From an uncultured Candidatus Binatia bacterium (GTDB lineage: Bacteria; Desulfobacterota; Binatia; Bin18), in assembly GCA_965232605.1 (NCBI GenBank), contig CBDDQA010000006.1, forward strand, positions 510,548 to 574,547: a DNA stretch of 64,000 nucleotides, in the 5' to 3' direction. Under the pieces are notes generated by a model. The model made no database searches. It saw only the letters and a list, made by a program, of their open reading frames with translations, and was not told the DNA's origin. The translations under genes were made by a program, and so were the position numbers. Below, one piece after another: positions 2,907 through 62,585 of the stretch (position 1 is its first letter; each line of letters starts with the position of its first letter).

Positions 2907-3728
2907 ATGAAACAGCAACTCGCCGCGTACACGGCTGAAGTGCTCTTCCCGGAACGCGAGAAATTTACCGCCCCGCTGCTCCTGCTGCCGGGTTTATGGA
3001 CAGGAAGCTGGATATGGCGGGAAGTCGCCTGGGGCCTTTCTCAGCGGGGTTGGTCGTGCTGGGCGCTTGATCGGTACGGGCAGCCCGCAGCCCGCCGGCG
3101 TGATCCTGTCTCTCTTGACGATCATCTCACGACCATTACCACAGCCAGCGCTACGTTCGATTGCCCACCCATTGTCATCGGTTTTGATCTGGGCAGTCTC
3201 CTCGCACTCCTCGCCGCCACCCGTCTGCAACCGCGCGCCCTCGTCTGCATCTCTCCCCTGCTGCCCTGCAACTGGCAAGCCGACCTGCGCCCGGCCCTGC
3301 CTCTGGTACGACTCGCCGCCCTGCCCGCACTCCTGTGGAATCGCGCCCATCCTCCTCCGTCTCGTCGGCTCGCCCGCGATTTTCTTTTTCACACGCTTCC
3401 GGCCGGGCTGCACAACGAGTTATACGCTCAGCTTGAGCCGGACTCCGGCAGAGTCGTCCGCACCCTCACCCGAGGTCAGACCGATTTTCCGGCCACTCCC
3501 CTGCCCTGTCCCAGTCTGGTTGTCTGGGGACAGGCAGACCGTATGGTGCCTGCTCCAACCGTACGTTGGCTCGCAGACGCTCTCCAGGCCGCCAGCCTGA
3601 GCTACCCGGACCAAGGCCACTGGCTGCTGGCCGGTCCACAGGCGGCGACCCTGGTCGGGGATGTTCATCGCTGGTTGATTCGCTCGCTGGGAGAAGCGCT
3701 GCTATTACCTCCGGAAGAAGACGAATAG
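2907..3728 (+). CDS. alpha/beta hydrolase fold protein
   Basis: LLLPGLWTGSW, a GFDLGS nucleophile-elbow-like motif, and the overall length and architecture of alpha/beta hydrolases. Confidence 0.55.
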   Translation: MKQQLAAYTAEVLFPEREKFTAPLLLLPGLWTGSWIWREVAWGLSQRGWSCWALDRYGQPAARRRDPVSLDDHLTTITTASATFDCPPIVIGFDLGSLLALLAATRLQPRALVCISPLLPCNWQADLRPALPLVRLAALPALLWNRAHPPPSRRLARDFLFHTLPAGLHNELYAQLEPDSGRVVRTLTRGQTDFPATPLPCPSLVVWGQADRMVPAPTVRWLADALQAASLSYPDQGHWLLAGPQAATLVGDVHRWLIRSLGEALLLPPEEDE

Positions 3729-3850
3729 GCATAGCCGTCGAACGCCCAGCCTGTCCGGTCTCTATCGTTCTCTCCCCTCCCTGGTATATTAAATGGGCAG
3801 TGAAAGAGAGGGCTCCAAAAAATCGGACACTGACCTGTGACCCGGCTGAT

Positions 3851-4774
3851 ATGAAACGTCTGTCCAGTCAAATCCTTCCAGTAGAGAAACCCATAGGAGA
3901 GGACGGGCTTGAAAACAGGGTCATCTGCGGCAACACGCTCGATGTTGTGCCATATTTACCGAATAACTTTGTTGACCTGCTCATCCTGGACCCGCCCTAT
4001 AATCTTTCCAAGAACTACAATGGCGCTCCGTTTCAGGAGAGAGGGAAGCAAGAATATCAGAGATGGTTTCAGCGTGTCCTCGAAGTCTTAAAACCGACCC
4101 TGAAATCGAATGCAACCGTGTATGTATGCGCGGACTGGAAGACTTCTGTTCTGATAGCACCTCTCCTTGAATCCCAACTTCGGATTCGCAATCGCATTAC
4201 GTGGGAGAGGGAAAAAGGGCGTGGAGCGAGGACAAACTGGAAAAACAACACGGAAGATATATGGTTCGGCACCGTATCGGACTCGTATTATTTTAATGTT
4301 GACGCCGTTAAGCTCAAACGTAAGGTAATTGCCCCCTATACCGTGGACGGCAAGCCAAAAGACTGGCAGCCAGAAGAGCATGGCAACTATCGCCTGACTC
4401 ACCCATCAAACATCTGGACGGACCTCACTGTACCGTTTTGGTCCATGTCCGAGAACACAGACCATCCGACTCAGAAGCCCGAGAAACTGCTCGCTAAGCT
4501 TATTCTTGCCAGCTCAAGAGAGTACGATTTCATTCTTGATCCCTTTCTTGGCAGCGGAACGACAGCGGTTGTTGCGCGAAAATTGGGCCGCCGTTTTTGC
4601 GGTATAGAGCTTAGCCGAGAATACTGCTGTTGGGCGCTGAAGCGCCTCGAACGCGCGGCTGATGACCCGACTATTCAGGGATATGCGGGAGGGGTCTTCT
4701 GGGAAAGAAATTCACTGAGCGATCAGTCGAAAGCGGGCGCGTCTCGGATACTGCAGAAAGAGCTTTTCTTATGA
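3851..4774 (+). CDS. DNA methyltransferase (N6-adenine/N4-cytosine, beta-class: motif IV DPPY precedes motif I FLGSGTT)
   Basis: LILDPPYNL, TQKPEKLL and DPFLGSGTT motifs. ATG at 3851. Markedly lower GC than the flanks. Overlaps the downstream gene by ATGA. Confidence 0.8.
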   Translation: MKRLSSQILPVEKPIGEDGLENRVICGNTLDVVPYLPNNFVDLLILDPPYNLSKNYNGAPFQERGKQEYQRWFQRVLEVLKPTLKSNATVYVCADWKTSVLIAPLLESQLRIRNRITWEREKGRGARTNWKNNTEDIWFGTVSDSYYFNVDAVKLKRKVIAPYTVDGKPKDWQPEEHGNYRLTHPSNIWTDLTVPFWSMSENTDHPTQKPEKLLAKLILASSREYDFILDPFLGSGTTAVVARKLGRRFCGIELSREYCCWALKRLERAADDPTIQGYAGGVFWERNSLSDQSKAGASRILQKELFL

Positions 4775-5229: not shown

Positions 5230-7236
<2,007 letters not shown>

Positions 7237-8734: not shown

Positions 8735-9037
8735 GCTCTCTTTTTCCAAGTCGCTCGGATGTGCTCCCCGCCCCATCCGCCTAGCATCACCCCCTGTCCC
8801 CCAAATGCCTGACACGCTCCGGGCTACAAATGTATTCATCCAGTCAGCGAGGGGGTAACAACTTGAGGAGTCATCCATTACCAAGAGTTGGCTATCAGAA
8901 ACAGAGCGGAAAACTATTCTGGACTGGTTTGGCTTTCCCAAGGAGAGCGCTGCTATGGAAGAGGAGAGTCCTGGGGTATTCAAAAGAGACAGAGTAAGAG
9001 CAAAGGACGATTCTGTGTCGCCACCCGTCACTCCTGC

Positions 9038-9150
9038 CCAAGCAGGGATCCAGGCCCCCCGCCCTCTCCGGCCTCTGGAGGCCGGATCACGTCCGGCATG
9101 ACGGAAGTTCCCGTTATGGCCAGAGTCGTGCAAGAGGCGCTCCACCTCTA
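9038..9150. repeat. ~110-bp interspersed repeat element, copy 1 (MITE/REP-like or small RNA)
   Basis: About 75% identical to 45622..45735, with the shared core gatcacgtccggcatgacg. The CAAG-loop hairpin ctgc-ccaa-gcag is ccggc-gcaa-gccgg in copy 2, a compensatory change. Confidence 0.5.
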
Positions 9151-14204: not shown

Positions 14205-15542
14205 TCAGCTTGTGAGTCTCTGCTTCTCCAGATATTTCGCCTCTGACTCCAGCAGCCTCAGTTGTTCATGTCGCGGTTCATACGAATGCTCGTGTGGATT
14301 CTCTGACGCCGTCTGATGGTATTCCCTTTTTGCCCGGCCATACGTCGCGGAAGTACAATACTCAAACAACTCCTTTTTACTATTTCTTTTTCGGATGACT
14401 CTTGAGGAAACATTCTTGAATCCATGTGCAAGAAGAGACTCCTCATATAAGTCGGGCGTGGCTACAGGGACACCATAGAAAGTACTATTGCCTATAATGT
14501 AATGTACTTCAGCGCTAGGTTTCAGCGCGGATTGAATCGATCGGATGTGTTCGTCCATATCATAAAAATATTTCTTCACGTACAGCGAAAGTAGTTCGCT
14601 ATTCTTTTCTCCGGTCCTTTTAATTTTTTCCACAACCGTATCCAAGGAATGCATCGCGCACTCATGGGTAGGCGACCAAGTGGTTAAGCGGCTGGTTGCA
14701 ATTCCCCAGGTGCCTCCAATTGCCTGCCAATCCAGTTCACCCGCCTCTCGCGCCTCGCCCAGAAAACCAAGCCAAAACATATAGGGACGAAGCTCCCGGA
14801 TATAGCTTATACGATTTGGGTAGGGGGGAGAGGTAACAATGGCATCGAATTGTGACTCCTCATGAAAGGGAGAAGCGCTATTGTGCAAGTGAACGACCCC
14901 TTTTCCCGATAAAGGCGCTATCGCACTGGCAATGAAGGCTTCTGCATAGCTCTCGAAGGCCAGAAGAATTTCCTGCTTCGAGTGAGATACGGTGTCATCC
15001 TGAAAGGAAACCGAAACGTGATTAAACGCTGCGGCGGAATACTCAATAGCCACTCTAGCGAACGCTATCCAGAGTAGAGAAAGAAAGCCAGCATTCTTCG
15101 GTTCGTCGATTATTTTGACGAGCGAAGCGCGAAGTTGGGCAAGTATTATGAGCGTATCCCTACTCCACCATCTTTCGATGTTCTTGAGGGGCGGAAGCCA
15201 CAAAGATTCATCCTGAGTGTCTGTGGCGCTGAGAACAACCTTCCGTAAGGCGTCTCGAAGGGCCGCTATATCGTCTCCAGACACATTCGCGAGCTTGATG
15301 TTGCCGAACCAGACCAGAAAAGGGTTAATATCAAACAACGTGCTTTTGTAGCCGCGTTCTGCGGCCACAACTCCGGTAGTGGCTGTCCCTGAGAATGGGT
15401 CGAGGATGTTACGGGTGTCTGGCAAATCGTCAATGATCCTGCCAACAAGTTTGACCGAGTAGGCAGGAGTCAGCCGCAGCCATCCGTGCCGCCCCAACGA
15501 GCGATTATATTTGAAGGTGTAGTCCGAGCGCTGAGATATCAT
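14205..15542 (-). CDS. DNA methyltransferase (motif I LDPFSGTATTG, motif IV TSPPYPN; N4C/N6A amino-methyltransferase)
   Basis: Methyltransferase motifs present. GC about 48%. Overlaps the upstream gene by ATGA. Confidence 0.75.
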   Translation of the reverse strand: MISQRSDYTFKYNRSLGRHGWLRLTPAYSVKLVGRIIDDLPDTRNILDPFSGTATTGVVAAERGYKSTLFDINPFLVWFGNIKLANVSGDDIAALRDALRKVVLSATDTQDESLWLPPLKNIERWWSRDTLIILAQLRASLVKIIDEPKNAGFLSLLWIAFARVAIEYSAAAFNHVSVSFQDDTVSHSKQEILLAFESYAEAFIASAIAPLSGKGVVHLHNSASPFHEESQFDAIVTSPPYPNRISYIRELRPYMFWLGFLGEAREAGELDWQAIGGTWGIATSRLTTWSPTHECAMHSLDTVVEKIKRTGEKNSELLSLYVKKYFYDMDEHIRSIQSALKPSAEVHYIIGNSTFYGVPVATPDLYEESLLAHGFKNVSSRVIRKRNSKKELFEYCTSATYGRAKREYHQTASENPHEHSYEPRHEQLRLLESEAKYLEKQRLTS

Positions 15543-40473: not shown

Positions 40474-42192
40474 ATGCAAATCTTTCCGACAGGATCAGAA
40501 ATTGAGCGCGCGGCCAACTTACTGGTGAAAAAGTACGATGTTACCGCACAACTCCTGGGAAAGCTCTTCGGTGCTAAGCAACGTGACAATGCGAATAGCA
40601 TTTTGAAATCGCTCGGAAGCGAGCGATTAACGACTTTAGCTGTTGCCCGTCTTCTCGTTCGGCGGGAGGGGCCAGAATTGTTTACAGGAAGCCGAGAAGA
40701 TACTCGCGAACTCCGGCTCCATCTGCTCAGACAACTCGCTGATGAGAAAGTGAAAAAGCTATTCCAGCGGCATATGAGCGATAGTAATGTTTCTTCTCCG
40801 TCACATATGCGTCGGCCATTAGCAAGGAGAAAGTGGTCCGCGGGCAAGCATTGGGCTAGGGATTTCGTAAAGGAGCTTGGGTTCCCACCCATTTTCGCGG
40901 GTATCGCATCGCCCCCCAAGGTTCCAACCATCCAGGATGTGCCCCCGTTAGAAGTCCCTCCTGAACTGGCCGAATTCCAAAAGGGTTTGAAGACAAAGAT
41001 GCTGGATGTCCTGGGACAAAACGGCGACAAAACTCGTTGTGTGGTTACTCTGCCCACTGGTGGGGGAAAGACACGCGTTGCTGTCGAGGCATTCATCGAC
41101 TGGATGCAGCCTCGCTTTGCGGAAGGAAAATACCTCATATGGATAGCGCAAAGTGAGGAACTTTGTGAGCAAGCTATCGCTTGTATTGAGTCGATGTGGG
41201 GTTCGCGACAGTTTGTTGGGCCTCTGCGCATATATCGATTTTTCGGCGGCCGCGACGTTCCAGAGGAAGATCTACGCGGTGGAGCCGTTGTGGCGAGCAT
41301 TCAACAACTTCACAGCCGGATCAAGTCGGGCGACAAATCGTTCGAGACAATTCTTTCCAATACCGGAGCAATGATTATCGATGAGGCCCACCGTGCTGTT
41401 TCACAGATGTACAACGGATTGTTGGACGCTGCTGAAAAGACATGCGGAAGCGATCTGTTTCCAATCTGCGGCCTCACCGCTACGCCAGGACGCCCTGACC
41501 AAGAGACAGACAAGCTCGTAGGCCGATTTGAAGCATACCTGATTAAGCCAGACCTCGGCGCGGAATATGAGAAGTCCCCGCTACGATATTTTCGTGAGCA
41601 TCAGTTTCTTGCTCGGGCATACCATAAATTGTACGGCTCCGGTCCCGAATACACGCTTACGGATGATGAAGCCGAGAAGGTCAAGAGAGAGAAAGATTTA
41701 CCGGCTGAATTTTTGAAACGTCTCGCCGCTGACAGACGGAGAAACCTTCTGGTCATACGTCGTCTTCTGGATTTACCCAAGGGAACTTCCACCCTTGTGT
41801 ATGCCTGCACCGTAGAACACGCCTATTTCCTATCAGCCCTCCTGTCAGCCCAAGGACGAAGCTCAGGAGCCGTCTCCTCGGATACCCCTATCACCCTGCG
41901 ACGTGCGCTAATCCATGATTTCAAAGAGCAAAAAATCGAGTTTCTCTGCAATTATGGAGTCTTGACCACTGGATTCGATGCGCCAAAGGTCAGATGTATC
42001 GCGCTCTGTCGGCCGACGACGAGTGAAGTTCTTTATGAGCAGATTATAGGCCGTGGACTTCGGGGACCTAAATTTGGTGGGACCCCAGAATGCACCATCA
42101 TCGACTTCGCTGATAACATCCTCCGACTCGGTCCTCCCCTTGCTTACAGACGGTTCGAGGACTTTTGGAGTGACCAAACTACTGAGCAATAA
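40474..42192 (+). CDS. SF2 DEAH-box helicase (COG1061/Type III Res-like core) with uncharacterised ~170-aa N-terminal domain
   Basis: Motif I TLPTGGGKT, motif II IIDEAH, motif III LTATP and motif VI QIIGRGLRG. GC is about 50% in a ~64% background. Confidence 0.75.
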   Translation: MQIFPTGSEIERAANLLVKKYDVTAQLLGKLFGAKQRDNANSILKSLGSERLTTLAVARLLVRREGPELFTGSREDTRELRLHLLRQLADEKVKKLFQRHMSDSNVSSPSHMRRPLARRKWSAGKHWARDFVKELGFPPIFAGIASPPKVPTIQDVPPLEVPPELAEFQKGLKTKMLDVLGQNGDKTRCVVTLPTGGGKTRVAVEAFIDWMQPRFAEGKYLIWIAQSEELCEQAIACIESMWGSRQFVGPLRIYRFFGGRDVPEEDLRGGAVVASIQQLHSRIKSGDKSFETILSNTGAMIIDEAHRAVSQMYNGLLDAAEKTCGSDLFPICGLTATPGRPDQETDKLVGRFEAYLIKPDLGAEYEKSPLRYFREHQFLARAYHKLYGSGPEYTLTDDEAEKVKREKDLPAEFLKRLAADRRRNLLVIRRLLDLPKGTSTLVYACTVEHAYFLSALLSAQGRSSGAVSSDTPITLRRALIHDFKEQKIEFLCNYGVLTTGFDAPKVRCIALCRPTTSEVLYEQIIGRGLRGPKFGGTPECTIIDFADNILRLGPPLAYRRFEDFWSDQTTEQ

Positions 42193-42206: not shown

Positions 42207-42947
42207 ATGATCAAACTCAGCGTCAACGTCAATAAAATCGCCACCCTGCGCAACGCTCGGGGCGGCGACCAGCCGAATGTCGTCCGGGCCGCCCAGACCT
42301 GCATCGATGCCGGCTGTCACGGCATCACCGTGCATCCCCGCCCGGACGGTCGCCATATTCGCTATCAGGACGTGAGAGACCTGGCCGCCCTGCTCGCAGA
42401 CCACAGCAGTATTGAATTCAATATCGAGGGCTATCCTTCGACCGAGTTTCTGGATTTGGTCTGCCAGGTGCGACCGACCCAGTGCACCCTGGTGCCCGAC
42501 CCGCCAGACGTACTGACCTCAAACACGGGCTGGGACCTCAGCGGCGATGTCACCCGGCTCGGCCAAGTCTTACAGCGTTTACACGACAAGGGCATACGGA
42601 CCAGTCTTTTTCTCGATCCGGATAACGAACAAGTGGGACGAGCAAAAGAGGTCGGCGCGGACCGGATTGAACTCTACACGGAACGCTATGCCCGTCTCTT
42701 CGGCAGTGCCGAGCAAGACCAGGTTTATGCCGCGTATCACGCCGCAGCCCAAACAGCACAGGAAGCCGGCCTGGGGCTGAATGCGGGCCACGATCTTAAC
42801 CTGGAGAACCTGCCCTACTTTGCCGAGCGTGTACCCGGTCTGCTCGAAGTGTCCATCGGCCACGCCCTGATTTGCGACGCGCTCTACATGGGGCTGGTCG
42901 CAAGCGTGAAAGCCTATCTGCGCGCGCTCAAGCCCCAACAAGATTGA
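42207..42947 (+). CDS. pdxJ: pyridoxine 5'-phosphate synthase
   Basis: MIKLSVNVNKIATLRNARGG...HPRPD...GHDLN, a PdxJ hallmark. Confidence 0.85.
   Translation: MIKLSVNVNKIATLRNARGGDQPNVVRAAQTCIDAGCHGITVHPRPDGRHIRYQDVRDLAALLADHSSIEFNIEGYPSTEFLDLVCQVRPTQCTLVPDPPDVLTSNTGWDLSGDVTRLGQVLQRLHDKGIRTSLFLDPDNEQVGRAKEVGADRIELYTERYARLFGSAEQDQVYAAYHAAAQTAQEAGLGLNAGHDLNLENLPYFAERVPGLLEVSIGHALICDALYMGLVASVKAYLRALKPQQD
42869..42930 (+). repeat. direct repeat copy 1 (3' end of pdxJ); ~90% identical to 44420..44482
   Basis: ctgatttgcgacgcgctctacatgg...gaaagcctatctgc is present at both sites. Copy 2 still encodes LICDALYMELAASAKAYLHAL. Confidence 0.65.
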
Positions 42948-42978: not shown

Positions 42979-43263
42979 ATGGCTACACAAACCATCAAAT
43001 CGACGTATTCGCTGGATATCGAATCCGTAAACATATTGGAGGCATTGGCACAACGCTGGAACGTGTCGAAGTCCGAAGTGCTCCGGCGTGCTATTCGGAG
43101 AGTAGCGATGGAGTGGGAGCCAGAGAGTAGTACGGCGCTCAGCGCTCTTGACCAATTGCAGGCTTCTCTCCGTAAGCGCAAGGTCAATACCACACAGTGG
43201 GCACGGACTCTCAATGCTGAGCGCCAAGCGGCTGCTCCACGGCTATCTTCCAAGTCTCAATGA
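42979..43263 (+). CDS. vapB: ribbon-helix-helix antitoxin (VapB/CopG-like)
   Basis: 94 aa immediately upstream of a PIN gene, overlapping it by ATGA. Contains VSKSEVLRRAIRR. Confidence 0.6.
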   Translation: MATQTIKSTYSLDIESVNILEALAQRWNVSKSEVLRRAIRRVAMEWEPESSTALSALDQLQASLRKRKVNTTQWARTLNAERQAAAPRLSSKSQ

Positions 43264-43631
43264 TACACTTGGATACGAGCTTTCTGATCCAAGCCCTGAA
43301 ACCGGGAGCCCCTGAAGATCGCAAACTGCGAATCTGGATTGAAGAAGGCGAAACACTGGTAATGAGTACAGTCGCCTGGGCAGAGTTCCTGTGCGGCCCA
43401 CTTGACCGCTCCGAGATGGAATTGGCCACTGAAATCATCGGCCAGCGTCGAGATTTCACGCCGAAGCACGCTACGATTGCCGCCGGTTTATTTAATGAGT
43501 CGGGCAGGCGGCGTGGCTCGTTGATTGACTGCATGATTGCAGCAACGGCGCTCGCCGATGGCGCGCCCGTCGCGACTGCGAATGTGGCGGACTTTCGTCG
43601 ATTTGAGGATTCCGGCCTGACTATAGCATGA
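43260..43631 (+). CDS. vapC: PIN-domain toxin VapC
   Basis: MIHLDTSFLI...ATANVADFRRF carries the PIN acidic residues. Confidence 0.75.
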   Translation: MIHLDTSFLIQALKPGAPEDRKLRIWIEEGETLVMSTVAWAEFLCGPLDRSEMELATEIIGQRRDFTPKHATIAAGLFNESGRRRGSLIDCMIAATALADGAPVATANVADFRRFEDSGLTIA

Positions 43632-44013: not shown

Positions 44014-44424
44014 ATGTACTTGGTCGATACCTCCGTGTGGGTCGATTACATCCGGGGCCGAGATTGCCAGCACGTCGACTTCCTGCGAGACCTGCTGTCG
44101 AATCCTACCGCCGTCTGGATTACGCACCTGATCTATATGGAGATTCTCCAGGGCGCACGCGACACGGCATCTTTTGATCGACTGCGAAGCTACTTCAGCG
44201 GACAACAATTTTATTCATTCAGCGACATGACCGCAGGTCACACCTCTGCCGCTCGCATCTACCTGGATTGCCGCCAACGCGGTGTCACCGTGCGCTCGAC
44301 TGCGGACTGTTTGATTGCGGCGTGCGCCATACAGTCCAAGACGACCCGGCTGCACCACGACAGAGACTTCGAGCGAATCGCCCTCGTCTTCCCGGCGCTG
44401 AAAGAAAAGAGCTTCCTCGGCTGA
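44014..44424 (+). CDS. vapC: PIN-domain toxin VapC
   Basis: MYLVDTSVWVDYIRG...DCLIAACAI...HDRDFERI. Confidence 0.75.
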   Translation: MYLVDTSVWVDYIRGRDCQHVDFLRDLLSNPTAVWITHLIYMEILQGARDTASFDRLRSYFSGQQFYSFSDMTAGHTSAARIYLDCRQRGVTVRSTADCLIAACAIQSKTTRLHHDRDFERIALVFPALKEKSFLG

Positions 44425-44482
44425 TTTGCGACGCGCTCTACATGGAGCTGGCAGCAAGCGCGAAAGCCTATCTGCACGCTCT
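44420..44482 (+). repeat. direct repeat copy 2 (displaced relic of the pdxJ 3' end)
   Basis: See copy 1 at 42869..42930. Confidence 0.65.
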
Positions 44483-45541: not shown

Positions 45542-45621
45542 GACGGAGCGCGCTAGAGCACTTTGCGATGTTATGTAGGAAGGAGCCTCGGAACCTCCAC
45601 TAGCAACGTCATTCCGGCGCA

Positions 45622-45735
45622 AGCCGGAATCCAGGTTCCCGGCCCTTTCGCCTTCTGGATGCCTGATCACGTCCGGCATGACGAGAGTCCTCTGTACGGC
45701 TAGAGACTACCGTGAGATGCGCCAGGAAGAATCTG
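45622..45735. repeat. ~110-bp interspersed repeat element, copy 2
   Basis: Aligns with 9038..9150. Ends 2 bp before a DUF2283 gene. Confidence 0.5.
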
Positions 45736-57279: not shown

Positions 57280-57300
57280 AAGAATCCTGTTGCTGGCTGA

Positions 57301-57346
57301 CAGCCCCGGTGTTGCCCTTCCGGTCTGACACCGGGGCTTTTTTGTG
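57301..57346 (+). terminator. rho-independent terminator (agccccggtgt...acaccggggct then TTTTTTG)
   Basis: Read directly from the sequence, after the stop at 57279. Confidence 0.6.
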
Positions 57347-57426
57347 TCCGAGCCACTCCGTACTAACCTTGCGGCCCGTAGCGTAATTTGTTTAATTCGC
57401 CGATATTTCCAACACAGGAGGACAGC

Positions 57427-57732
57427 ATGGCCGATTTTGTCAAAGTGGCCTCAACGAGTGATATCCCCGCAGGCGAAGGCCGGTGTTTTGAGGTCAACGA
57501 TCAACAGGTAGCCATCTTCAATGTCGACGGCACCTTCTACGCCCTGGATAATGTGTGCCCGCACCAGGGCGGTCCATTAGGCGAAGGCGAATTAGACGGC
57601 AATATGGTCACCTGCCCGTGGCACGCCTGGGATTTCGATGTCACGACCGGAGAAAACAGCGATGACCCGGACGAAAAACAAGATACCTATGAGGTCAAAG
57701 TAGACGGCGACGATGTCCTAGTCGCTGTCTGA
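57427..57732 (+). CDS. Rieske [2Fe-2S] domain protein (NirD-like small subunit)
   Basis: CPHQGGPL...CPWHAWDF Rieske ligand motifs. ACAGGAGGA ribosome-binding site. Confidence 0.75.
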   Translation: MADFVKVASTSDIPAGEGRCFEVNDQQVAIFNVDGTFYALDNVCPHQGGPLGEGELDGNMVTCPWHAWDFDVTTGENSDDPDEKQDTYEVKVDGDDVLVAV

Positions 57733-57733
57733 A

Positions 57734-57787
57734 AAAGAGTAAACGTGTCCTCCAATACACAGGAGATGCCGGACACGTTTACTCTTT
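57734..57787 (+). promoter_or_regulatory. conserved 16-bp-stem hairpin element, copy A (aagagtaaacgtgtcc / 20-nt loop / ggacacgtttactctt)
   Basis: Perfect inverted repeat starting 2 nt after the Rieske gene stop and ending 8 nt before the Leu-DH start. A near-identical copy lies at 61801..61853. Confidence 0.55.
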
Positions 57788-57795
57788 CAACCCGT

Positions 57796-58872
57796 ATGGC
57801 GCTTTTTGAACGTATGCAGGCAGAGGACCACGAACAGGTGGTCTTCTGCACGGACCGCAACGCTGGCCTCACCGCTCTGATTGCCATCCACGATACCACC
57901 TTAGGACCCACCCTGGGTGGCATCCGTCTGCGGGCGTATGCCAGTGAAGAGGACGCAGTGACAGATGTTCTGCGCCTCTCCCAGGCCATGACCTATAAAG
58001 CCTCCCTGGCCGGTCTGGAGTATGGCGGCGGCAAGGCGGTTGTCGTTGCCAATAAGCCAGTAACGAATAGAGAAATTGTATTTCGCGCGCTGGGCCGCGC
58101 CATAGAGTCTTTAGCGGGTCGCTATATTCCAACCGAAGACATGGGCACGACGACCGCAGACATTGAACACGTCCGGGCGGAGAGTCGGTTCGGGGTCGGA
58201 CGGGCGGAGGCGTTTGGCGGTGGCGGAGACCCGTCTCCCATGACGGCCTGGGGAATCTTCTGTGGCTTGCGGGCGTCTCTCGAAGAAACGGACGGCAAGG
58301 CCGAATTTCAGGGCTTGACCGTGGCCCTGCCCGGTCTGGGAAAAGTCGGCTACTCCCTGGCCCAATACCTCCACCAAGCCGGGGCACGGCTGATAGTCGC
58401 GGATGTGGATGCAACTCGGGCCGACAAAGCGAAGGCCGAGCTCAGCGCCGAGGTTGTCGCCCCGACCGATATTCTGACCCAGCAGTGCGACATCCTCGCC
58501 CCCTGTGCCGCGGGTGGGATTTTCAATCCAGAGACGATTCCCCAACTCCGGTGCCGGATTATCGGCGGTGGGGCCAATAATCAGCTCCTGACCGAGGAAG
58601 ACGGAGACGCACTTCACGCGCGGGGCATTCTGTACGCGCCGGACTTTGCGATTAACGCCGGTGGGCTGATTAACGTCGCGGACGAGTTGGGTCCCGGCGG
58701 CTATCGTCGCGAGCGGGCCAAGGCCAAGACCGAACAGATTTACTCCACCCTGAAAACGCTTTTTGCCCAAGCCAAGCAGCGAGACATCCCGCCCCACCGT
58801 CTGGCCGTTACCCTGGCTCAGGAACGCATCCGGGCCGTGCGGAATTTGCGCCGGCTGAATACGGCGTCATGA
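57796..58872 (+). CDS. Glu/Leu/Phe/Val dehydrogenase family protein (leucine dehydrogenase-like)
   Basis: MALFERMQAEDHEQVVFCTD aligns with LeuDH N-termini. GLEYGGGKAVV motif. Confidence 0.8.
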   Translation: MALFERMQAEDHEQVVFCTDRNAGLTALIAIHDTTLGPTLGGIRLRAYASEEDAVTDVLRLSQAMTYKASLAGLEYGGGKAVVVANKPVTNREIVFRALGRAIESLAGRYIPTEDMGTTTADIEHVRAESRFGVGRAEAFGGGGDPSPMTAWGIFCGLRASLEETDGKAEFQGLTVALPGLGKVGYSLAQYLHQAGARLIVADVDATRADKAKAELSAEVVAPTDILTQQCDILAPCAAGGIFNPETIPQLRCRIIGGGANNQLLTEEDGDALHARGILYAPDFAINAGGLINVADELGPGGYRRERAKAKTEQIYSTLKTLFAQAKQRDIPPHRLAVTLAQERIRAVRNLRRLNTAS

Positions 58873-58926
58873 AGGGCCATTTTCGATCTTTCCTCACAAA
58901 TCCCTCTTTGCTATAGCCTCCTTACT

Positions 58927-60000
58927 ATGAAAAGTGCACTATCTGCCTGGCTTGAAAGCCAGGGCGTATCGCTCGCCAATGATCGCGGCGTTGAACTCCC
59001 GGACGCCTTTACTAATCCGCAAGACGAATACGCTGCCGTCTGCAAAAAAGCGGGGCTGATCGACCTGTCCTTTCGCACCCAGGTGAAATGCACGGGAGAG
59101 GATCGGACCGATTTTCTGCAGGGCATGTTGTCCAACGATGTCAAAGCTCTGCGACCCGGCGAGGGTTGTCCGGCAACGCTGCTGACGGAGCAGGGACGGA
59201 TTGTGGCGGACTTGCGCGTCTATGCGGAGGAGTCGGCCATCCTCCTCGACCTTGATGCCCGTATCAAGCAGAAGACGGTTGAAGCCCTCGACCGTTTTAT
59301 CATTGCCGACGATGTGGAGCTCGAAGACCTGAGCGCCCACCAGGTCACTCTTGCGGTCCAGGGTCCGACCGCGGCAGAGATCGTGGCAGCAGCCGGTCTC
59401 TCTGCCTTGCCGGAGCAGGAATTACAGCACCGGGACGCAACGATTGCAGATGTCCCGGTCCGAGTGATTCGCTCCGACCAGACCGGCAAGAGTGGCTATG
59501 AGTTCCACATTCCCAGCGACCGGGCAGCCGTCGTCTGGCAGGCACTCGCTCAACTCGACGGGTTGCTTCCCGTTGGCCACACTGCGCTGAATATGCTGCG
59601 CGTTGAGGCCGGCATTCCGTGGTATGGACTCGATATGGACGAGGACAGAATCGTGCTGGAGGTCGGCCTCGACCGAGCCATTAGTTTTCATAAGGGCTGT
59701 TATCTGGGCCAGGAAGTCGTCGAGCGAGCGGCGGCGCGCGGGCATATGAATCGTCTGCTCAGCGGGTTTCTGTTGCAAAATGAAGGGCAGGCTGCATTGC
59801 CGACACGCGGCGACCGACTTTTGAAGGACGACAAGGACGTCGGCTGGCTGACCAGTGTCACCACCTCCCCAACCCTGGGCCGACCGATTGCCCTGGGTTA
59901 TGTCCGGCGCGAACATGGCGAGCCAGGCACCCGGCTGCGGATTGACAGGCCGGACACGGACATGATAGTCGAGGTGACCAAGTTACCGTTTCTACAGTAG
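58927..60000 (+). CDS. GcvT/YgfZ-family folate-binding aminomethyltransferase-like protein
   Basis: Glycine-cleavage T-protein fold signature regions. 357 aa. Confidence 0.65.
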   Translation: MKSALSAWLESQGVSLANDRGVELPDAFTNPQDEYAAVCKKAGLIDLSFRTQVKCTGEDRTDFLQGMLSNDVKALRPGEGCPATLLTEQGRIVADLRVYAEESAILLDLDARIKQKTVEALDRFIIADDVELEDLSAHQVTLAVQGPTAAEIVAAAGLSALPEQELQHRDATIADVPVRVIRSDQTGKSGYEFHIPSDRAAVVWQALAQLDGLLPVGHTALNMLRVEAGIPWYGLDMDEDRIVLEVGLDRAISFHKGCYLGQEVVERAAARGHMNRLLSGFLLQNEGQAALPTRGDRLLKDDKDVGWLTSVTTSPTLGRPIALGYVRREHGEPGTRLRIDRPDTDMIVEVTKLPFLQ

Positions 60001-60179: not shown

Positions 60180-60210
60180 TACCGGTCTGTTGCCATACAC
60201 ATAACAGTGA

Positions 60211-60240
60211 GGAGCGAGGGAAACCTCGCTCTTTCTTTTT
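60211..60240 (+). terminator. rho-independent terminator (gagcgagg-gaaa-cctcgctc then TTTCTTTTT)
   Basis: Read directly from the sequence. Confidence 0.55.
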
Positions 60241-60253
60241 GGGGCTGGGGTTT

Positions 60254-61801
60254 ATGTCTTTCGCACCCCACACCGCGGACCTGTTGCTCTACGGTGGACA
60301 TGTTCTCAGCTGTGACCCAGACCGGCCTGAAGCCCAGGCCGTTGCTATTGCGGCAGGAAAAATCCTCGCGGTCGGCACCGAGCAGGAACTACGCGCCTGT
60401 GTCTCTCCGAAAACACAGACCCTATCGTGTGCCGGGAAAACGATACTGCCGGGCTTTATCGACCCTCACTTGCATCTCTTTGCCTGGGCGAGTCGCTCCT
60501 GCGGCGCAGACCTGGGTACAGCCCGGTCAATTGCTGAAATCCAGTCTCAACTCCAGGCACGCCTGGACGCTCTCGGCTCGCAAGACTGGCTGCGCGGCTA
60601 TGGCTATGATGAGTTTTTTCTCGACGAGAAACGCCATCCGAATCGACACGACCTCGATGCCATCTCGACCGACCAGCCCATCATCCTGCGTCATCGGACC
60701 GGCCATGCTGCCGTTCTGAATAGCGCCGCGCTCCGGCAAACCGGTATCCATGCCCGGTTTATCCCGCCAAAGGGTGGCAACATCGAACACGACGCAAGCG
60801 GAGAGCCAACGGGCGTGGTCTACGAGCTAGAGTCGTTTCTGCGGACTGCCCTGCCTCCGCTTCCGGCGCGGGAGTTTCAGGCCGGATTGCGACAGGTCAA
60901 CGGCGAACTGCTCAGACACGGAGTCTGTTCGTTTCACGACGCCAGTGCCGGCAATACGCCTGAGGCGCTCGGACGCTTCGCCGCCTTCCGAGCCAACGGC
61001 GTCATACGTCCCCATGCAACCGTGATGGTCGGGGTTGGAGCGTTCTCGCAGGTACAAGAGGCCGGCCTCACCGCCTTTGACCGGTCCGGCCAGGTTCGGC
61101 TGGGCAGTATTAAAATCATGCTGCACGAAAGCGGAGGCGAACTGTATCCGCCGCTGGACGACCTGGCGGAAATGGTCTGGCAGGTGCATCGCCACGGGTT
61201 TCAGGTCGCCATCCACGCCGTTGAAGAAGCTCCTGTCTGCGCGGCCCTCGAAGCGATTCAACGGGCACTGGAGCGACTGCCTCGCCACGATCATCGGCAT
61301 CGAATCGAACACTGCACGCTGTGTCCCCCGCCGTTTCTTGACACCCTGGCCGAGACAGGCTGTGCAGTGGTGGTGCAGCCGGGCTTTCTGCATTTTTATG
61401 GCGACAAATATGCCGCACAAGTTGATACGGATGTACACGCTTGGCTGTACCGGGCCAAAAGCTTTCGGGAGCGCAACATTCCCGTTGTCGGCAGCTCAGA
61501 TTGTCCGATTGCCCCACAGGCCCCATTGGTCGCGATTCAGGCTGCCGTTACCCGCCAGTCCCACACCGGAATGACCCTCAATCCCGCCGAACGCTTGTCG
61601 TGTCTTGAGGCGGTTGGTCTGTTCACCCAAGCCGCAGCCTGGGTCGGGTTTGAGGAAGACCGGACCGGCAGCATCGCCCCCGGCATGCGTGCGGATGTGG
61701 TTATCCTCGACAGCGACCTGACGAGGCTCCCGGCTGAAGCCCTCAGCCGGGTCAACGTCCAGACAACAATCATTGACGGTGAGATTGTCTATTCGGCATA
61801 A
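60254..61801 (+). CDS. amidohydrolase family protein (amidohydrolase-3-like)
   Basis: FIDPHLHL metal-binding motif. Large metal-dependent hydrolase architecture. Confidence 0.7.
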   Translation: MSFAPHTADLLLYGGHVLSCDPDRPEAQAVAIAAGKILAVGTEQELRACVSPKTQTLSCAGKTILPGFIDPHLHLFAWASRSCGADLGTARSIAEIQSQLQARLDALGSQDWLRGYGYDEFFLDEKRHPNRHDLDAISTDQPIILRHRTGHAAVLNSAALRQTGIHARFIPPKGGNIEHDASGEPTGVVYELESFLRTALPPLPAREFQAGLRQVNGELLRHGVCSFHDASAGNTPEALGRFAAFRANGVIRPHATVMVGVGAFSQVQEAGLTAFDRSGQVRLGSIKIMLHESGGELYPPLDDLAEMVWQVHRHGFQVAIHAVEEAPVCAALEAIQRALERLPRHDHRHRIEHCTLCPPPFLDTLAETGCAVVVQPGFLHFYGDKYAAQVDTDVHAWLYRAKSFRERNIPVVGSSDCPIAPQAPLVAIQAAVTRQSHTGMTLNPAERLSCLEAVGLFTQAAAWVGFEEDRTGSIAPGMRADVVILDSDLTRLPAEALSRVNVQTTIIDGEIVYSA

Positions 61802-61853
61802 GGAGTAAACGTGTCCTCCAATACCGCATGAGATGCTGGACACGTTTACTCTT
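61801..61853 (+). promoter_or_regulatory. conserved 16-bp-stem hairpin element, copy B
   Basis: aggagtaaacgtgtcc / 21-nt loop / ggacacgtttactctt. Begins at the stop codon of the amidohydrolase and ends 12 nt before the enoyl-CoA hydratase start. Confidence 0.55.
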
Positions 61854-61865
61854 GAAAGAGCGTGT

Positions 61866-62585
61866 ATGCCTTCCCCCGCTGTCCTGTACGAAAAAGACGG
61901 CAGTGTCGCCGTTGTCAGCCTCAACCGGCCTGACATGCTCAACGCCTATAACGTGGCAATGCGGGACGATTTGCACGAAATTCTTCGGGCCGTCCGGGAC
62001 GACCCTGAGGTCCGGGTCATGATCTTGCGCGGAGAAGGCCCGGCCTTTTCTACCGGCGGAGATGTTTCAGAGTTCGGTTCAGCGCCCTCTCCGCTGCGGG
62101 CGCGTGAGGTGCGCTGGCAACGGGATAACTGGGGGCTGCTGTTGCGCCTGCCTCAGCCGACCATTGCGGCGGTCCACGGCTATACCGTCGGCGGCGGGAT
62201 GGAAATGGCGCTGCTGTGTGATTTGTGCATTGCCGCGGACGATACGGTCTTTTTTCTACCGGAAACCGGCCTGGGTATGATCCCTGGGGTAGGCGGGACG
62301 CAGACTGCACCCCGAGCCATCGGGCTGGGCCGCGCCCTTGATATGGTCCTCACCGGAAAGCGTCTGAGTGCCGACCAGGCCCTCCAGATTGGCCTGGTAA
62401 ATCGGGTGGTTTCCCTGGCTACCCTCTTGACTGAGGCCAAATCTCTGGCATACACACTGTCCCGTTATAATCCAACAGTCGTTGCCCTGGCAAAACGGGC
62501 CGTCCGACAGGGCGCTGACCTGAATTTATCCGATGGCTTACGACTGGAACAAAATCTATTTGCACTGGTAAAGGAGCAGGCATGA
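61866..62585 (+). CDS. enoyl-CoA hydratase/isomerase family protein
   Basis: VVSLNRPDMLNAY...AAVHGYTVGGGMEMAL. Confidence 0.75.
   Translation: MPSPAVLYEKDGSVAVVSLNRPDMLNAYNVAMRDDLHEILRAVRDDPEVRVMILRGEGPAFSTGGDVSEFGSAPSPLRAREVRWQRDNWGLLLRLPQPTIAAVHGYTVGGGMEMALLCDLCIAADDTVFFLPETGLGMIPGVGGTQTAPRAIGLGRALDMVLTGKRLSADQALQIGLVNRVVSLATLLTEAKSLAYTLSRYNPTVVALAKRAVRQGADLNLSDGLRLEQNLFALVKEQA

Follow-up and report, generated by a model that had tools for sequence, protein, structure and literature searches.

Two palindromic repeats at gene junctions

Within the window (the whole 64-kb stretch of DNA analysed here), two near-identical palindromic repeats stand at gene junctions (Table 1), with copy A lying between the genes for a Rieske [2Fe-2S] protein and a Glu/Leu/Phe/Val (ELFV) dehydrogenase, and copy B between the genes for an amidohydrolase and an enoyl-CoA hydratase. 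The start assigned to the dehydrogenase at 57796 is followed by Pfam domains from residue 12, and the same start is kept in the orthologous locus L033. The TAA stop codon of the amidohydrolase gene (61799-61801) is completed by the first two bases of copy B.

Table 1. Genes, hairpins and parts of the two repeat copies, in window coordinates.
Feature	Position	Strand	Remarks
Terminator-like hairpin with T-tract	57300..57345	+	3' of flavin reductase gene; terminator scan
Rieske [2Fe-2S] protein gene	57388..57732	+	stop at 57730-57732, 1 nt 5' of copy A
Copy A of the 54-bp palindromic repeat	57734-57787	.	arms, profile search and folds
Copy A left arm	57734-57750		AAAGAGTAAACGTGTCC
Copy A loop	57751-57770		TCCAATACACAGGAGATGCC, 20 nt; 'TCCA...GCC' orientation on + strand
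Copy A right arm	57771-57787		GGACACGTTTACTCTTT
ELFV dehydrogenase gene	57796..58872	+	ATG 8 nt 3' of copy A
Terminator-like hairpin with T-tract	60209..60244	+	between GCV_T and amidohydrolase genes; terminator scan
Amidohydrolase (Amidohydro_3) gene	60239..61801	+	stop overlaps copy B
Copy B of the repeat	61800-61854	.	55 bp
Copy B left arm	61800-61816
Copy B loop	61817-61837		21 nt
Copy B right arm	61838-61854
Enoyl-CoA hydratase gene	61866..62585	+	ATG 11 nt 3' of copy B

A sequence-only reading of this DNA had located copy A correctly, together with its 20-nt loop, and had recognised a near-identical second copy; its stem of 16 bp is counted here as 17 bp, all of them paired, and its limits for the second copy, 61801..61853, are recounted as those of Table 1. 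Copy B is the less regular of the two, with 14 perfect pairs followed by a G-T and an A-T pair and with an A/G mismatch as its outermost pair. The halves of the two copies are 96% and 93% identical (repeat families D18 and D13), the arm-gap-arm pattern matches twice in the window versus 0.00 expected (100 shuffles, none matching), and a profile search of the window returned copies A and B as its sole matches. The hairpins foreseen in that reading do fold stably as RNA, with energies of -27.6 and -30.1 kcal/mol for copies A and B (z = -4.3), and as single-stranded DNA they reach -17.6 and -14.4 kcal/mol (z = -7.9 and -5.7).

The terminator scan revealed two sites in this region with GC-rich stems, short loops and T-tracts (Table 1), which bracket the Rieske, dehydrogenase and GCV_T genes and thus look unlike the 54-bp repeat. 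The first of them likely marks the start of a Rieske / dehydrogenase / GCV_T unit, and the pair suggests that copies A and B each lie between the first and second genes of an operon. Neither copy was called by this terminator and promoter scan, which does report 57318-57336 and 60209-60234 in the region. Intrinsic terminators are defined by a GC-rich stem, a 3-8-nt loop and a run of at least 5 T immediately 3' of the stem, and the scan result is in keeping with the earlier view that these hairpins lack a T-tract and are not classical terminators.

Without the repeats, the stop-to-start spacers read TGA-a/caacccgt-ATG at copy A and T/AA-AGAGCGTGT-ATG at copy B (slash at the site of the copy). 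As part of our best joint explanation, we consider it likely that copies A and B entered two operons long ago, each in a stop-to-start spacer of ~9 nt, and have since been inherited vertically. The flank 3' of copy B (61855-61865) is AAAGAGCGTGT, which resembles the start of the element minus TAAA; it could be chance, an ancestral weak Shine-Dalgarno sequence or the remnant of an older copy. A separate difference lies further along the first operon, where L033 carries an 806-bp low-GC (44%) insertion (L033:1609-2414) relative to window 58868-58927. The insertion separates the dehydrogenase gene from the GCV_T gene, codes for a protein of 261 aa in the Exo_endo_phos family and represents a strain-specific gene gain within the operon.

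Two further repeats were seen elsewhere in the window. One is a ~120-bp sequence at 9025-9145 and 45605-45725, ~75-80% identical between its two intergenic occurrences, which contains ...TCAyTCCkGCsCAAGCmGGrATCCAGG... and a conserved GATCACGTCCGGCATGACG core and for which Rfam gave no match. The other, at 2676-2825, consists of at least 7 tandem 15-bp units (GCCAAGAAAGCCCCG = AKKAP) in a place where the gene caller reported no gene.

A dispersed repeat family of Candidatus Binatia

Scanning species-representative genomes with 11 bases of each arm yielded at least 118 stretches with exact matches. Among the matches listed, all but one fell in Candidatus Binatia MAGs, including one MAG labelled Thermodesulfobacteriota, the sole outsider being Danxiaibacter with a different, longer palindrome; several Binatia chromosomes had ten or more blocks each among the matches listed. 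A relaxed search, which allowed 3 mismatches per arm and covered 8-kb loci (designated by L-numbers) together with the 64-kb window, ~1.0 Mb in all, recovered 184 Binatia copies that resolve into 106 independent sites after clustering of orthologues. The same ~1 Mb contained only 9 solo arms, each decayed or shortened. The sequence-only reading had held the hairpins to be conserved and repeated and had proposed looking for more copies and for conservation in relatives; many further copies and conserved orthologous copies were both found, and the window itself is 90-94% identical to four element-bearing loci.

The family consensus is AAAGAGTAAACGTGTCC-TCCAATAnnnnnnAGATGCT-GGACACGTTTACTCTTT (left arm, loop, right arm), and 64 sites have an element of 54 bp and 25 sites one of 55 bp, lengths elsewhere ranging over 52-60 bp. 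Judged from the additional copies in the loci and the two in the window, density in the sampled DNA is about one copy per 15-30 kb, which would correspond to ~150-350 copies per 5-Mb genome as an extrapolation, rather than a count, from 8-kb blocks and one 64-kb window.

Searches for a known identity gave little. Rfam at gathering score had no match anywhere in the 64-kb window, and at the locus, with E values up to 10 admitted, the best overlapping match was a chance miRNA model (19 bits, E = 5.6). The viral contigs searched held no copies, and a literature search on Binatia and palindromic repeats found no description of the family. An adapter or assembly artefact is rejected because copies occupy orthologous sites in independent short-read and long-read assemblies.

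Clean insertion of a discrete unit

When the 200-bp flanks of every copy were run by blast against all loci, they gave 253 filled and 71 empty orthologous comparisons. At ~20 independent sites the empty allele differs from the filled one by exactly the 54-bp AAAGAG...CTCTTT unit, and the flanks of the empty allele abut with a gap of 0 in most cases and occasionally of +/- 1-2 nt. Because filled and empty alleles differ by exactly the whole unit, the element moves as one discrete piece. Its flanks carry direct repeats of 2-8 nt no more often than chance would give (106 sites), which means that no target-site duplication is made.

Direction of change can be read in locus L078, which has three insertions within 2.5 kb where L039 has none (the loci are 91.6% identical over the region, gap columns counted). 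The insertion at 3133 is missing from L039 and also from L058, a more distant locus, and so was more probably gained in L078 than lost elsewhere. The three copies (L078:3133-3186, 3612-3665 and 5606-5659) belong to one arm subfamily (GAGGRRACG...) and lie in frame in adjacent CoA-transferase, VWA and MoxR genes, and may represent a local burst of that subfamily.

Target preference is weak and symmetric, with almost no A at -6, G at ~53% at -5 and C at ~50% at -4, amounting to at most 0.3 bits, and it has no link with loop orientation. The four bases beside each foot are complementary to each other less often than chance.

No candidate enzyme emerged from the loci and the window. Using phmmer with approximate IS200 TnpA and E. 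coli RayT queries, we obtained no match below E = 1 among six-frame ORFs of ~1 Mb, and Pfam found no transposase among the low-GC or atypical ORFs of the loci and window. What Pfam did recognise among these ORFs were methylases, a helicase, PIN toxins, a NERD/SEC-C protein and an Exo_endo_phos gene. Nor does any pair of arms enclose a transposase gene in 1 Mb of loci, as a parent IS would, the 9 solo arms being decayed copies. In the window, the low-scoring or low-GC genes at 3731-4771, 14208-15542, 40474-42189, 43260-43628 and 44014-44421 are likely accessory and encode two DNA methyltransferases (N6_N4_Mtase / D12), a ResIII/DEAD helicase and two PIN-domain toxins, the toxins adjoining a paralogous 62-bp repeat (42867-42928 / 44421-44482).

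One orthologous junction, 16 nt 5' of a start codon, exists in three states among genomes: with a family copy (L008:365-416, L013:7273-7324), empty (L096:5643), or with an unrelated 48-55-bp hairpin, AAAAAATATCACCGCC-loop-GGCGGTGATATTTTTT (L004:1896-1949, L074:6687-6734, L101:7152-7206), whose loop is likewise flipped between genomes. As a candidate for a second dispersed family this hairpin was rejected, the metagenome scan having given unrelated matches only, and it looks like a local hairpin.

Recurrent inversion of the loop

Across copies the two loop orientations are almost equally frequent (88:90). Of 129 orthologous pairs 29 differ by an inverted loop, and of 39 site clusters 12 contain such an inversion. 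When reverse-complemented, an inverted loop matches its partner with 75-100% similarity (most at least 90%) and has the same site-specific variants; these are therefore inversions in place and not re-insertions. Both window copies are affected: the copy A orthologue in L033 (470-523) has its loop inverted, and of the copy B orthologues, which are in L033, L059, L073 and L104, those in L033 and L073 have the loop inverted.

Such flipping is well known from chloroplast spacers, where loops between short inverted repeats invert recurrently (Whitlock et al. 2010, PMC2903610); in hairpins such as that of trnH-psbA the loop flips recurrently and homoplasiously among close relatives with the arms fixed, as here, although these are single-copy organelle hairpins and not a mobile repeat family. 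By analogy, we infer that the Binatia loops invert through template switching or arm-arm recombination.

Inversion also bears on the coding potential that had been seen in the loop, namely an AGGAG followed by an in-frame ATG. The ATG is indeed present and in frame in both copies, where it derives from the repeat consensus ATGCTGGACACGTTTACTCTT = MLDTFTL, so that the peptide of the earlier reading is one consensus reading frame of the family. The AGGAG is confined to copy A, the consensus at that place being CATGAG, and in L033 the loop ATG, once flipped, no longer shares the reading frame of the dehydrogenase. Since the flip shifts the ATG out of frame and AGGAG is not part of the consensus, the idea of a Shine-Dalgarno sequence and start codon in the loop fails.

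Placement at gene junctions and inside genes

Gene contexts from a self-trained ORF caller revealed that intergenic copies are distributed over tandem (72%), divergent (16%) and convergent (12%) intervals much as all intergenic intervals are (70%, 15% and 15%). At 21 gene ends the stop codon is the element's own TAA (AAA GAG TAA; a peak at -9, phase 0), and at 10 further gene ends, that of copy B among them, the stop is completed by the element's first AA. Many copies end 5-20 nt 5' of the next start codon. With the element removed in silico, 29% of the tandem-site copies lie in stop-to-start spacers of 15 nt or less, versus 1% under random insertion along the intergenic bases and 32% were every junction an equally likely target. 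That very short operon spacers contain far more copies than the per-base model predicts may be a sign of function, and not simply of tolerance.

A further 33 copies were called intragenic, some of which reflect N-terminal over-extension of the ORF call. At least 8 are in-frame insertions deep inside seven long genes supported by Pfam, with domains that span or flank the insert. These genes encode two CoA-transferases (in which the domain runs across the insert), a MoxR AAA+ ATPase, a VWA protein, a UvrD_C/PD-(D/E)XK (helicase-nuclease) protein with two inserts, a TonB-dependent receptor and an outer-membrane efflux protein (OEP). In relatives, several such sites are found empty, the filled gene being longer by a net 54 nt (18 codons). 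Read-through is confined to phases 1 and 2, giving inserts of 18 residues of the form '..RVNVSS..LDTFTL' or 'KSKRV..AGHVYS'.

Relation to known small repeats

Among known systems, the closest in architecture are REPINs, which are REP doublets that form hairpins and are mobilised by RAYT transposases (Bertels & Rainey 2011, PMC3116915). Like these, the Binatia element is a short non-autonomous sequence with many copies in each genome and no target duplication; its replicative unit is a single hairpin formed by the inverted conserved arms and the spacer (184 full units versus 9 solo arms); and its copies are vertically inherited and well conserved. The differences lie in the arm AAAGAGTAAACGTGTCC, which lacks a GT(A/G)G head and is not itself a REP palindrome, having only an ACGT core; in length, 54 bp as against the 71- and 110-bp spacings of paired REPs; in composition, the element being AT-richer than its genome; and in location, REPINs being extragenic whereas the Binatia element has at least 8 in-frame insertions in seven genes. 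REPIN systems have a cognate single-copy RAYT gene (Y1_Tnp, PF01797) flanked by the repeats; with approximate queries, none was found in ~1 Mb of Binatia loci.

In behaviour the element recalls Rickettsia palindromic elements (RPEs), which insert in frame into unrelated protein genes, adding a conserved peptide and leaving the ORF intact (PMC10969869). It too enters unrelated ORFs in frame, with an 18-residue peptide in Pfam-intact hosts, but RPEs are ~100-150 bp long and belong to Rickettsia, whereas the Binatia element has 54 bp, favours gene junctions for most of its copies and belongs to a phylum unrelated to Rickettsia.

Other classes fit less well. Integron attC sites, which have R''/R' core sites (RYYYAAC...GTTRRRY) and extrahelical bases and form arrays beside intI, were set aside on inspection, since AGTAAAC and GTTTACT misfit the cores, the stems are perfect and the copies are dispersed among housekeeping genes. 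Classical bacterial MITEs (Correia, ERIC, RUP) are DDE-derived, make target-site duplications and have ends in common with a parent IS. The Binatia element shares their small size, terminal inverted repeats, hairpin formation and dispersal between genes, but it makes no target-site duplication (106 sites; gap 0 at empty sites). In 1 Mb of loci no parent IS with the same ends was seen. IS200/IS605-derived PATEs have hairpins that are subterminal, not terminal, and a conserved target of four or five nucleotides preceding their left end; the Binatia element differs in a weak, symmetric flank bias of at most 0.3 bits at -6 to -4 and in ending exactly at the stem foot. E. coli REP/BIME sequences protect mRNA 3' ends and stall ribosomes when a REP lies within ~15 nt of the stop codon, and share with the Binatia copies the stable hairpins directly after stop codons within operons, but the sequence-level test for RNA selection was negative for the Binatia element (see below). 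We place the Binatia repeat as a new family among the small non-autonomous palindromic repeats, REPIN- and RPE-like, of a kind that is itself familiar.

Constraint on arms and loop

The arms are constrained in both pairing and sequence. Over the 106 loop-oriented copies that formed the covariation set, 96.2% of arm cells are paired, with slid controls falling to 32-58%, and 10 of the 17 pairs are changed on both sides, for 28 double-change cells versus 4.5 in shuffles. The arm pairing is thus kept by compensatory changes, though some double changes are inherited by subfamilies (e.g. GAGGGAACG / CGTTCCCTC) so that not all are independent events. Across 97 orthologous pairs, one member of each found via perfect 11-mers, identity rises from 83.0% at third codon positions through 90.1% in non-element intergenic DNA, 93.3% in loops (flip-corrected) and 95.8% at first codon positions to 97.2% in the arms and 97.5% at second codon positions. 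With the 11-mer ascertainment allowed for, we estimate that neutral decay would leave the arms at ~88%, and the observed 97.2% therefore argues that the arms, and probably the loops, are constrained or homogenised. Purely selfish copies should decay, so this high conservation points to a host-level function or to a homogenising process.

Interpretation and alternatives

Taken together, these observations make it likely that copies A and B are members of a Binatia-specific family of mobile palindromes, non-autonomous and ~54 bp long, in which arms of 17 bp enclose a conserved loop of ~20 nt. The insertion unit is the whole hairpin, entering cleanly at the stem foot and without target-site duplication, and the copies gather at gene junctions and, in two stop-free phases, in frame within genes. 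We infer that movement proceeds via a folded single-stranded DNA hairpin, both feet of which would be cut by a structure- and sequence-specific enzyme acting in trans; the nearest models, by analogy, would be HUH/tyrosine transposases of the RAYT or IS200/IS605 type. Judging from the gene layout, copies A and B are presumably transcribed in polycistronic mRNA, in which each would form a hairpin of -28 to -30 kcal/mol with the upstream stop and downstream start held at its base. A looped-out hairpin that keeps stop and start together could explain why coupled junctions of 9 nt tolerate the copies. Were the hairpins to alter mRNA stability or translational coupling, they would do so as a side product in the manner of REPs and not as dedicated regulators of these genes. 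With so many dispersed copies at junctions and in genes, the repeat is not a control element specific to these amino-acid-degradation genes, and an intercistronic role in RNA stability or processing is possible only as a general side effect of the REP kind.

The conservation and placement of the copies could also be read as those of a domesticated RNA-level module, which would serve 3'-end protection, processing or translational coupling in REP style and be kept by host selection, a mobile origin being compatible with it. Orthologous copies conserved well over third codon positions, their excess in very short operon-internal spacers, and stable RNA hairpins with stop and start codons at the stem base all suit such a module. 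Against it, mismatches read in mRNA sense are no more often G-U (18) than A-C (27), from which pairing seems to be kept at the DNA level or on both strands and not in the transcript; loop orientation relative to transcription has no significant bias (55:38); and divergent and convergent regions hold copies at background rates. Copies also lie within ORFs, presence and absence are polymorphic among related genomes, and it is the arm sequence that is conserved and not pairing alone, which a plain RNA hairpin would not need. We regard this reading as possible but doubtful.

More radical, and in our judgement unlikely, is a new type of hairpin transposon, in which a perfect stem-loop would be cut and inserted exactly at its feet, and without duplication, by a structure-specific enzyme of a sort so far not linked to such elements, would invert its own loop, and would have been co-opted by the host as a tolerated or useful module at junctions and in proteins. 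Such co-option would explain why old copies retain 97% arm identity versus 83% at neutral sites.

That same arm identity among orthologues, with a symmetry held at the DNA level and a loop whose orientation is irrelevant, would equally be expected of a DNA-level host site, bound by a nucleoid protein, gyrase or similar (cf. REP/BIME), dispersed in an early burst of transposition and since maintained by selection acting on the arm sequence. No candidate protein is known, however, the apparently lineage-specific insertions indicate ongoing spread and not a fixed set of sites, and copies in coding regions would be odd for a chromosomal structural site, all of which leaves this explanation distinctly improbable.

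A bidirectional intrinsic transcription terminator copied round the genome would draw on the A-rich 5' foot and T-rich 3' foot (AAAGAG / CTCTTT), and at one junction (L008, L013) the element does stand exactly where other genomes have an A6-stem-T6 terminator-like hairpin. We hold it to be very unlikely, given that the scan passes over an element with a 20-nt loop, an AT-rich stem foot and only 3 T after it while calling GC-rich, short-loop, T-tract sites in the same window (57300-57345 and 60209-60244), that copies are not enriched between convergent genes, and that many copies lie 5-20 nt before the next start in operons or within ORFs.

Finally, two copies 4 kb apart in similar positions, one with AGGAG then ATG in its loop, had invited the reading of an operator common to two branched-chain catabolic units, or of a locus-specific translational sequestration hairpin with its own Shine-Dalgarno sequence and ATG for two catabolic gene pairs, to which we give almost no credence: the same 54 bp stand beside unrelated genes at 106 independent sites, lie inside coding sequences and are present or absent between relatives, the consensus lacks AGGAG, an orthologue has the loop inverted and its ATG out of frame, and two copies per window fit the general density of the family.

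Significance of the family

The reading of Binatia intergenic hairpins as operon-specific regulators needs revision, and annotation should mask the family, whose copies make genes seem extended at the N terminus, provide them with stop codons and lengthen proteins by inserts of 18 residues. The element joins three traits that are usually separate, namely a REPIN-like unit without duplication, RPE-like in-frame insertion and a chloroplast-like loop flip, and its filled or empty and flipped or unflipped states are ready-made strain markers. As the host group is an uncultured phylum with many closed genomes, it offers a tractable comparative system for the movement of such elements and their retention by the host. 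A new family with such a set of traits, and with a conservation that is unexplained, merits whole-genome follow-up.
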